Shown here in pieces: positions 44,391-45,785 of a stretch of DNA of 64,000 bases. The notes under the pieces are model-generated. The model did no database searches, was not told where the DNA came from, and saw only the letters and a list, made by a program, of their open reading frames with translations. Source of the DNA: Elusimicrobiota bacterium (GTDB taxonomy: Bacteria; Elusimicrobiota; UBA8919); the NCBI GenBank assembly GCA_043802785.1, contig JAZDKR010000024.1, positions 97 through 64,096 on the forward strand. The letters run 5' to 3'. Each line of letters begins with the position of its first letter. The stretch's first letter is position 1. Both the position numbers and the translations under genes were made by a program.

Positions 44391-45785
44391 CTACGTTCCT
44401 TCCTGCCAACTTGAAAGATATTTTTTCTGCTCGGGCGTTAATTTGTCTATTTGGACACCCAACGACGCAAGTTTTAATTCGGCAATTTTTTCGTCAATAT
44501 CCTTCGGCACCGGATACACTTGATTTTGTAATTTCATCTGCGTTGAGATTGCTTCGTCGTCCCGATTGTATCGGGACTCCTCGCTATGACATCTGCGACT
44601 ACCTACATTTTTTACAAGATATTCCGCAGCAAGCGACTGGTTAGCAAATGACATATCCATAACTGATGCTGGATGTCCCTCAGCAGCAGCAAGATTTATA
44701 AGCCGTCCATCGGCAAGAATATAAATTTTTCTGCCATTTTTCAGAGTGTATTCTTCAACAAACTCTTTCACTTTTCTTATAGTCGGATAAATCCGACCGC
44801 TACGAGTGGAAGAGCAAAGTTTTTTCAATGCAGGTATGTTTATTTCAACATTAAAATGTCCCGAGTTGCAAACAATCGCACCGCTTTTCATTTTAAGAAA
44901 ATGCTGTTTATCAACAACATTTATGTCGCCGGTTAAGGTAACAAAAATATCGCCCACTTTTGATGCATCCATCATCGGCATCACCTGAAATCCATCCATT
45001 AGTGCCTCTATTGCTTTAAGATGGTCAATCTCAGTAACGATAACATTAGCACCCATTCCTTTAGCACGCATTGCAACACCTCTACCACACCATCCGTAAC
45101 CGACAACAACCACATTTCGTCCTGCCAGAAGCACATTTGTTGCACGGATGATTCCGTCAAGTGTGGACTGCCCGGTGCCATACCTGTTATCAAAAAGGTG
45201 TTTTGTGAGAGCATCATTGACGGCAATTATCGGATATTTTAGCACGCCATCTTTCGCCATTGCTTTAAGCCGTATTACGCCTGTCGTTGTCTCTTCCGTT
45301 CCACCTATAACCCGTGAACTCATGAACCCGTGAACTCGTGAACCAGTATGTAAAGTAGTAACAAGGTCGGCACCGTCGTCCATTGTTATTTGCGGATTTG
45401 CGGCAAGAACCGACTGTATATGTTTGTAATATGTTTTGTTGTCCTCGCCTTTTATTGCGAATGTCGGTATGCCAAAATCGGAAACCAAAGACGCCGCTAC
45501 ATCATCCTGTGTGGAAAGCGGATTTGAGGCACACAAAAAAATTTTTGCGCCACCTTCCTTCATCGTGAGCATCAGATTTGCCGTCTCACTTGTTACATGA
45601 AGACATGCGGCAACGGTGATATTTTTCAGCGGTTTTTCTTTTGCAAATCTTTCTTTTATAAGACGAAGAACCGGCATATCCCGTTCCGCCCACTCAATCC
45701 TGTTTTTCCCAACTTCTGCCAATTTTAAATCTTTAACATCGTAGTTCATTATTCCTCCTACAAAATAAGCGACTTCGTCACACAA
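44391..45785 (-). CDS. ahcY: Adenosylhomocysteinase. Carries an in-frame 23-aa repeat insertion at about 44538-44606.
   Basis: NAD-binding and SAH hydrolase signatures. The insert [23 protein letters not shown] is encoded by gattgcttcgtcgtcccgattgtatcgggactcctcgctatgac. Confidence 0.9.

Follow-up and report, generated by a model that had tools for sequence, protein, structure and literature searches.

The 64-kb stretch of DNA analysed here (the window; contig JAZDKR010000024.1 of the Elusimicrobiota metagenome-assembled genome (MAG) GCA_043802785.1) raises the question of why an adenosylhomocysteinase gene (ahcY) should contain, in frame, a palindromic segment whose DNA recurs in a glycosyltransferase gene and between genes of the same contig. 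The best-known cases of selfish DNA carried in frame by housekeeping proteins come from Rickettsia; here the phenomenon is encountered in an Elusimicrobiota MAG to an extreme degree. We consider it likely that the 45-nt segment represents a single unit of a non-autonomous palindromic element resembling repetitive extragenic palindromes (REPs), of the CGTC-tagged kind related to the repeats of Ssn (site-specific single-stranded DNA (ssDNA) nuclease), which would have spread via an Ssn-like nuclease and is tolerated in a loop of AhcY. Comparison loci from other genomes or contigs are designated by L-numbers (L001, L017 and so on).

The nested-hairpin segments of ahcY and the family-2 glycosyltransferase gene (GT2) are identical at 43 of 45 nt (44547-44591 and 52054-52098), in agreement with the near-identity claimed in a preliminary description of this DNA. 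The pattern GATTGCTTCGTCGTCCCGAT-NN-TATCGGGACTCCTCGC-N-ATGACA has exactly these two matches in the window and none in 100 dinucleotide-preserving shuffles. The translations quoted in that description (16 residues in AhcY and VIARSPDKIGTTKQSH in GT2) are correct. However, the two genes read the unit in different frames, and the sharing with the glycosyltransferase therefore holds at the DNA level only, not for the peptide. A third intragenic copy, absent from the preliminary description, is located in a phosphoglucomutase-family (PGM/PMM) gene; this palindrome is open in one frame only, which is the frame used, and is translated as SLRGRSDDLAMT. The three intragenic copies (ahcY, GT2 and PGM/PMM) are thus translated in three different frames.

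On the sense strand of the gene, the unit reads (C/T)GTC-ATTGC-GAGGA-(variable hairpin)-GACGAA-GCAAT-C. Its outer stem is ATTGC/GCAAT rather than CATTGC/GCAATG as first described, and the nested hairpins ascribed to both copies are retained only in GT2. When folded as single strands, the GT2 unit and the intergenic unit at 30003 adopt the nested structure, with the outer ATTGC/GCAAT stem and an inner hairpin of 7-8 bp (z = -3.5 and -5.9, respectively), whereas the ahcY unit forms only the 8-bp inner hairpin (z = -2.4) because its outer stem is mutated (GCTAT; ATAGC on the sense strand). The long forms fold as multi-branched palindromes with z = -6 to -7.

Further copies were located by scanning the window with the conserved ends of the unit (Table 1). 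The family is dispersed between genes, as had been proposed, and the coordinates of the intergenic members given previously are corrected in Table 1. The segment 18000-18365, which had been assigned to the same family as a whole, includes a degenerate dimer within 18078-18311, but the other hairpins there are related yet distinct ones of the CGTC type. The canonical CGTC-type hairpins in this intergenic cluster are 18226-18258 (TGTCATTCCCGC...GCGGGAATCCA) and 18283-18311 (CGTCATTCCGTG-cttga-CACGGAATCC), the latter similar to the Rickettsia palindromic element (RPE) RPE-4. The window units with a GATTGCTTCG/GTCATTGCTTCG end (ahcY, GT2, 30003 and the right halves of both dimers; n=5) share one orientation relative to transcription; in the whole window, 57 of 61 long open reading frames (ORFs) are on the minus strand, the GC skew is uniformly negative and the coding density is ~88%. 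No Rfam family matched any copy, either at the gathering threshold or at E values up to 10. Literature searches with the DNA strings and encoded peptides of the unit returned only unrelated primers and papers, and a search combining Elusimicrobia with palindromic repeats returned nothing relevant.

Table 1 Repeat copies in the window and the genes that contain them (a dot marks features given without a strand).
Feature	Coordinates	Strand	Description
ahcY (adenosylhomocysteinase)	44391-45749	-	452 aa, intact ORF; PF05221/PF00670
22 codons = AhcY residues 385-406	44532-44597	-	Unit and short linkers; no counterpart in solved AhcY 7o5l
Single REP unit inside ahcY	44547-44591	-	Sense strand TGTC-ATAGC-GAGGA-GTCCCGAT-aca-ATCGGGAC-GACGAA-GCAAT-C; inner stems 44559-44566 and 44570-44577
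Family-2 glycosyltransferase gene (Glycos_transf_2)	51477-52307	-	276 aa vs 231-247 aa in syntenic orthologs; ORF intact
Single REP unit inside GT2 gene	52054-52098	-	Outer ATTGC/GCAAT stem intact; part of 78-nt insert without counterpart in L003 and L124 orthologs
PGM/PMM-family (phosphoglucomutase-family) gene	47194-48882	-	562 aa; several repeat-derived inserts
Palindrome inside PGM/PMM gene	48277-48314	.	Perfect, 16-bp stem: CGTC-ATTGCGAGGTCG-tcac-TGCGACCTCGCAAT-GACA; third intragenic copy
Intergenic inverted dimer (full element), downstream of ahcY	44158-44273	.	GTCATTGCGAGG...GGCAATCCC-spacer-GATTGCTTCGTC-hairpin-TCCTCGCAATGAC
Intergenic inverted dimer (full element)	41416-41540	.	
Intergenic single unit, left end fused	30003-30047	+	GTCATTGC-TTCGTT-hairpin-TCCTCGCAATGAC
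Partial decayed intergenic unit	41368-41396	+	GTCATTGCGAGCGTTAGCG...
Degenerate dimer of the same family in intergenic repeat cluster	18078-18194	.	Long form

The in-frame palindromic insert reported for adenosylhomocysteinase is confirmed by structural and ortholog comparison. In the alignment with the closest solved AhcY (7o5l), query residues 2-384 correspond to chain residues 9-379 and query residues 407-452 to chain residues 380-425, and 22 query residues remain unaligned. The Elusimicrobiota orthologs are typically 417-419 aa long, compared with 452 aa in the window. In the AlphaFold2 model of AhcY (mean pLDDT 73), residues 384-405 have pLDDT values below 50 and no secondary structure, and this segment sits between helix 363-380 and strand 411-413. 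The insert is predicted from the model to be a disordered surface loop that follows the last helix of the cofactor domain and precedes the C-terminal tail.

The catalytic and cofactor motifs of AhcY are conserved, and comparison with the L001 ortholog (GCA_043816185.1) gave dN/dS = 0.063 and dS = 0.97, which indicates that ahcY is under strong purifying selection. The L001 gene contains the element at the same codon and in frame (ADIRKCHCEESRCNRDDKATSTQ), in a decayed form. An assembly or binning artefact, or an ahcY pseudogene, may come to mind for a metagenome-assembled source, but this is hardly conceivable given the intact ORF, the conserved motifs, the low dN/dS and an independent assembly with the insert at the same codon at 17% nucleotide divergence. 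Readings as an intein, an intron or an artefact were rejected in view of the insufficient length of the element, its lack of splicing motifs and its conservation in the independent assembly. A metagenome scan with the insert-bearing AhcY C-terminus, dominated by the conserved flanks, returned only insert-free AhcY genes among the matches listed, and a protein search with the 58-aa insert region gave no candidates.

Other lineages have different repeats in the same loop of AhcY. It holds four tandem heptamers (AGTCGGA) in L124, a GTAG-tagged hairpin (GTAGCC-GCAGAGC-GAA-GCTCTGC) and a second hairpin in L125, heptamer arrays (NNCAGAT) followed by other nested palindromes in L297 and L298, and a possible remnant (GAAGGCAATC) in L003. 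The loop acts as a sink for repeats, different lineages having captured different ones. The window enzyme also contains two repeat-derived inserts that the preliminary description did not mention. A GTAG-tagged REP is in frame at 44781-44803 (minus strand; GTAGCGGTCGGATTTATCCGAC) and accounts for nine extra residues, SSTRSGRIY, which are absent from the orthologs and 7o5l. A tandem array with a period of 8/16 (AACCCGTGAACTCATG x2.2) at 45309-45344 falls in a variable loop (approximately residues 137-147) with extra residues around HGFMSS, where the orthologs have heptamer-like peptides (FTVHG/GSR). The AhcY of the window thus has three different repeat-derived inserts in one enzyme. The GATTTATC core of its GTAG-tagged REP is also present at 188, 42366, 44354, 45793 and 54819.

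The inserts of GT2 and PGM/PMM are absent from the syntenic orthologs in L003 and L124. The PGM/PMM protein is 562 aa long in the window and 481-513 aa in the L003 and L124 orthologs; the L001 ortholog, also repeat-expanded, has 605 aa and a different insert of ~45 aa with CHC.../DEIVAIP elsewhere in the protein. Stops are absent from every frame of the unit in the sense orientation and present in one or two frames in the reverse orientation. An ATP-dependent DNA ligase of L036 (Curtissbacteria, a MAG of the candidate phyla radiation) has the unit in frame (VIARNSKNDEAI) at ~2014-2049, inside the adenylation domain, which is thereby divided into two Pfam blocks. In-frame capture by this unit family is therefore not confined to the window genome.

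Both genes of the window contain additional repeats. GT2 has a second insert at 52160-52215 (PPKADSPIRVAGD), which comprises two hairpins, is flanked by the 8-bp direct repeat CTCAATCT and is absent from three orthologs. Within an N-terminal insert of PGM/PMM, two GTAG-tagged hairpins are arranged as an inverted pair at 48654-48704 (GTAGCGGCGAAT...ATTCGC and GTAGCGGTCCGCCTAGGCGGAC). Two heptamer/octamer arrays inside the same gene encode PIPYPLSP-type segments; a period of 7 in coding sequence would cause frameshifts on slippage.

The wider distribution of the unit, which the preliminary description did not address, was surveyed with the exact frame ATTGCTTCGT-N10-40-CCTCGCAATGAC across GTDB species, each represented by a single genome. 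The frame is present in at least 120 stretches, which come from more than 15 phyla. The hosts among the matches listed include Alphaproteobacteria (many Bradyrhizobium), Chloroflexota, Patescibacteria, Planctomycetota, Zixibacteria, Ignavibacteriota, Bacteroidota, Verrucomicrobiota, Armatimonadota, Bacillota, Rickettsiales, Elusimicrobiota and others, and the same exact-match scan found 84 viral contigs in IMG/VR. Among the 240 modules listed, there are 173 distinct central regions, which are mostly clean hairpins with unrelated stem sequences and fold better than shuffles. In the 35-nt length class of the listed modules, three of four inner pairs have changed on both sides and 93% of the cells are paired, a level that 0 of 500 shuffles reach; the hairpin covaries. 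An inverted partner lies within 150 nt in 149 of the 233 listed modules (64%), and the resulting elements of 67-148 nt have the layout of the long forms in the window. The tails of these 233 modules are CCA (84), CTC (85) or CCC (22), and in the listed cross-phylum dimers C or T precedes GTC. The repeat explains many spurious peptides (LLAMT, PRND, CHCEE, VIARS and SLRG) and length outliers among conserved metagenome proteins.

In other genomes, the ends of the unit are associated with small GIY-YIG genes, which were found by tblastn with a consensus probe and confirmed by Pfam and a family hidden Markov model. A GIY-YIG gene of 95-96 aa (PF01541) lies between two unit ends in L042 (Bacillota) and L017 (Planctomycetota), with GTCATTGCGAGGA-hairpin-GACGAAGCAATC upstream and GATTGCTTCG...CTCGCAATGAC downstream. 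In homolog loci picked by protein similarity alone (L290 and L292-L296), modules are present on both sides of the gene in L290 and L296, a full dimer starts 10 nt past the GIY-YIG stop with none upstream in L293-295, and L292 combines a downstream module with an upstream copy that is decayed. Because the unit ends bracket or adjoin GIY-YIG genes, the dimers look as though they derive from a GIY-YIG-bearing unit and lack its gene. The proteins form a very large family, with about 70% identity across phyla. Pfam assigns only PF01541 to the flanking proteins, and their nearest PDB relatives are UPF0213 proteins (E = 4e-4). This link supplies concrete candidate nuclease/substrate pairs, for example those of L017 and L042.

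Direct repeats were observed around some of these genes. The repeat-GIY-YIG-repeat unit of L017 is flanked by a 126-bp direct duplication (4877-5002 and 5436-5561; 96% identical), apparently of the pheT 5' end, and far longer than a usual target-site duplication. In L290, a 41-bp perfect direct repeat is present on both sides of the gene.

The association with GIY-YIG genes bears on the enzyme that could mobilise the repeat. The element resembles the REPIN/RAYT (REP-associated tyrosine transposase) system in that the mobile unit is an inverted hairpin doublet, the singles look like decayed halves and a single-copy enzyme acting in trans is proposed. Mobilisation by a RAYT (Y1/HUH), as for GTAG REPs, would be compatible with this dimer architecture, the lack of a clear target duplication, the coexistence of GTAG-tagged REPs in the window and a Y1_Tnp gene in a related genome (L002/L003). 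We regard it as very improbable, however. The tag is (C/T)GTC and not GTAG, the genes bracketed by the ends are GIY-YIG genes, and no RAYT linked to CGTC REPs is reported in the literature (PMC3733652). The Y1_Tnp gene of L002/L003 was discarded as a candidate: no copy of the unit occurs within 21 kb at its L003 locus, and no relative of the Y1_Tnp gene occurs in the window or in any repeat-holding locus.

The unit shares several features with CGTC-tagged REPs, which are described as having an unpaired CGTC tag (or TGTC/CCTC), a stem starting with AT, a CCA-like tail and a mostly inverted-dimer arrangement in five phyla; Rickettsia RPE-4/RPE-6 and Neisseria dRS3 are among them, some copies are intragenic and in frame, and no dedicated transposase is described (Di Nocera, De Gregorio & Rocco 2013; PMC3733652). 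The tag is TGTC in the ahcY, GT2, 30003, 41416 and 44158 copies and CGTC at 48277. The stem starts with A-T (ATTGC...GCAAT) in all copies, with one mutation (ATAGC) in ahcY. A short tail (CCA, CTC or CCC) follows the palindrome, and the dimers are inverted with the tags outward. Most copies are intergenic and occasional ones are intragenic and in frame, as in the CGTC REPs, where such copies encode ~8-30 residues. In contrast to the ATTCC-type stems of 8-9 bp with 4-5-nt loops in the same source, the ahcY and GT2 units have a different geometry, namely a 5-bp outer stem ATTGC/GCAAT around a GA-rich internal loop and a freely varying second hairpin (8 bp in ahcY and GT2); a long uninterrupted stem is found only in the 48277 palindrome. 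An ATTGC-type string is absent from the text and supplements of PMC3733652, and Elusimicrobiota and most phyla found here are outside the five phyla that it names. The RPE-4/-6 peptides given there (VIPWLDHGI, SFPRKRES and VIPAKAGI) are of the ATTCC type and, as far as these listed peptides allow comparison, differ in type from the window unit.

The second relative is the family of repeats recognised by Ssn. The enzyme acting on this repeat class was still not known in 2013 and first became a subject of study in 2025. Ssn proteins (single-domain GIY-YIG, cd10448) are site-specific ssDNA nucleases, which bind to hairpins of this type and cut them. Cleavage depends on the three bases 5' of the palindrome and binding on a C that follows it, repeats (NTS/Ssn-related motifs (SRMs)) typically flank the genes, and a role in transformation is known for Neisseria only (Chenal et al. 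2025; PMC11893778). The window unit likewise has a 5' GTC and a C just past the palindrome, so that GTC-ATTGC...GCAAT-C matches the Ssn-critical positions. Small single-domain GIY-YIG genes bracketed by repeats (here in other genomes), hundreds of solitary copies per gene and a wide phylogenetic spread are further similarities.

In-frame presence in unrelated housekeeping genes, at fold-compatible sites and kept across species, is also characteristic of the Rickettsia palindromic elements, as cited in two later sources (Ogata et al. 2000, 2002, via PMC10969869 and PMC3733652). An in-frame insertion with a preserved ORF at a tolerant site was found in ahcY, and likewise in GT2 and PGM/PMM. RPE-1 is ~100-150 bp long and encodes a conserved peptide, whereas the present unit is 45 nt and is read in three frames. 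The host also differs from Rickettsia, being a free-living-type Elusimicrobiota MAG in which the unit coexists with GTAG REPs and heptamer arrays.

In the mechanism that we propose, the complete element would be an inverted dimer of two units (67-148 nt), and its gene-carrying form would have the same end pair (GTCATTGCGAGG...GAAGCAATC and GATTGCTTCG...CTCGCAATGAC) around a ~95-aa single-domain GIY-YIG nuclease gene. The element would spread as DNA, probably via single-stranded hairpin intermediates handled by a GIY-YIG nuclease encoded elsewhere in the genome. Most copies would land between genes and few in coding sequence, where a copy would survive only in a tolerant surface loop and only if it preserves the reading frame and brings in no stop codon. 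The unit in AhcY would be translated as an extra disordered loop of ~22 residues in an enzyme that stays functional. Our verdict is that the insert is a tolerated, selfish repeat, a phenomenon already known from RPEs and intragenic REPs. What is new is the host phylum, the nested-hairpin variant with its GIY-YIG link, and how densely different repeats are packed into individual housekeeping genes.

Several observations weigh against this explanation. GIY-YIG genes are absent both from the 64-kb window and from ~60 kb of loci in related Elusimicrobiota. In addition, ATTGCGAGG-type units do not match the SRM consensus HGTCWY-N0-2-YYVSBRH-N0-5-WNVSBRG-N0-2-RNCYNB, for which 18226-18258 is the sole match in the window. 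No consistent target-site duplication was found. The ahcY unit is flanked by the 8-bp direct repeat CGCAGATG, but this repeat is not reproduced at other copies; since CGCAGATG and the window linker resemble the heptamers of relatives, whose array it overlaps, it is not read as a target-site duplication and may instead be part of an older heptamer array. Finally, the 48-nt element of the window and its L001 counterpart agree at 40 of 48 positions (83%), compared with 53% at the four-fold sites of ahcY (P about 1e-5) and 60% in the linker of 5 codons beside it. A purely neutral passenger would not be conserved above neutral sites in this manner.

The direct repeat at ahcY, together with the 12-bp terminal inverted repeats GTCATTGCGAGG/CCTCGCAATGAC, would suit a classical miniature inverted-repeat transposable element derived from an insertion sequence with a DDE transposase, terminal inverted repeats and target-site duplication. 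This origin is extremely unlikely. The intergenic copies are without a duplication, the ahcY repeat overlaps the heptamer-type array just mentioned, and clustering of ORFs of at least 80 aa around about 120 of the loci listed revealed no shared gene and no enriched transposase family.

The conservation of the element could possibly reflect constraint on the protein sequence of this loop in an essential enzyme, gene conversion by copies elsewhere in the genome, for which the near-identity of the ahcY and GT2 copies can be cited, or selection on the hairpin. The third-codon positions (12 of 16 identical between the window and L001) do not decide among the three. It is improbable, in our estimate, that the intragenic copy is functional and kept by selection, be it because the peptide loop is useful or because a hairpin in the mRNA or DNA affects pausing or stability or provides a nuclease or recombination site. 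The excess identity over the four-fold sites and the linker, a dN/dS of 0.22 for the insert and the retention of G-U pairing on the sense strand by both L001 stem changes argue for such a function. However, the third-codon positions are only modestly conserved, and the signal could therefore mostly be protein-level constraint or gene conversion. The L001 copy deviates from the family frame at 6 positions and the window copy at 1, and neither ortholog retains an intact outer stem. Each of the three intragenic copies is read in a different frame, the units have no orientation bias relative to neighbouring genes across phyla, and other lineages have unrelated repeats or none at the same loop. We would also entertain, as a doubtful but not negligible extension, that the ATTGCGAGG-type repeat and the ~95-aa GIY-YIG gene make up a still-active mobile element of very broad host range that uses a GIY-YIG ssDNA nuclease instead of a transposase, its miniatures colonising coding sequences and its intragenic copies being non-neutral and held near the consensus by selection or by repeated nuclease-driven gene conversion.

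The window contains other repeats besides these families. Tandem heptamer/octamer arrays (AGGGGAT, AGGGTTT, AGGATTA, AATCTCTC and similar) are located at 5820-5956, 7125-7162, 14826-14969, 15281-15343, 19472-19602, 28106-28167, 48621-48657, 48828-48864, 53349-53532 and elsewhere, often as inverted pairs at gene boundaries. A dispersed family built of ATTCGCG(T/A) units (632-715, 2920-3014, 3364-3413, 9574-9694, 42474-42549 and 50414-50509) also occupies gene boundaries and partly overlaps ORF ends. A dihydropteroate-synthase-like gene (Pterin_bind) apparently consists of two overlapping ORFs in different frames (41549-41896 and 41839-42348), which could be due to a frameshift, a pseudogene or a sequencing error. 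Four tandem 141-nt units (47 aa each) lie at 52501-53061 inside the ORF 52288-53436, which has a weak match to DUF7253.

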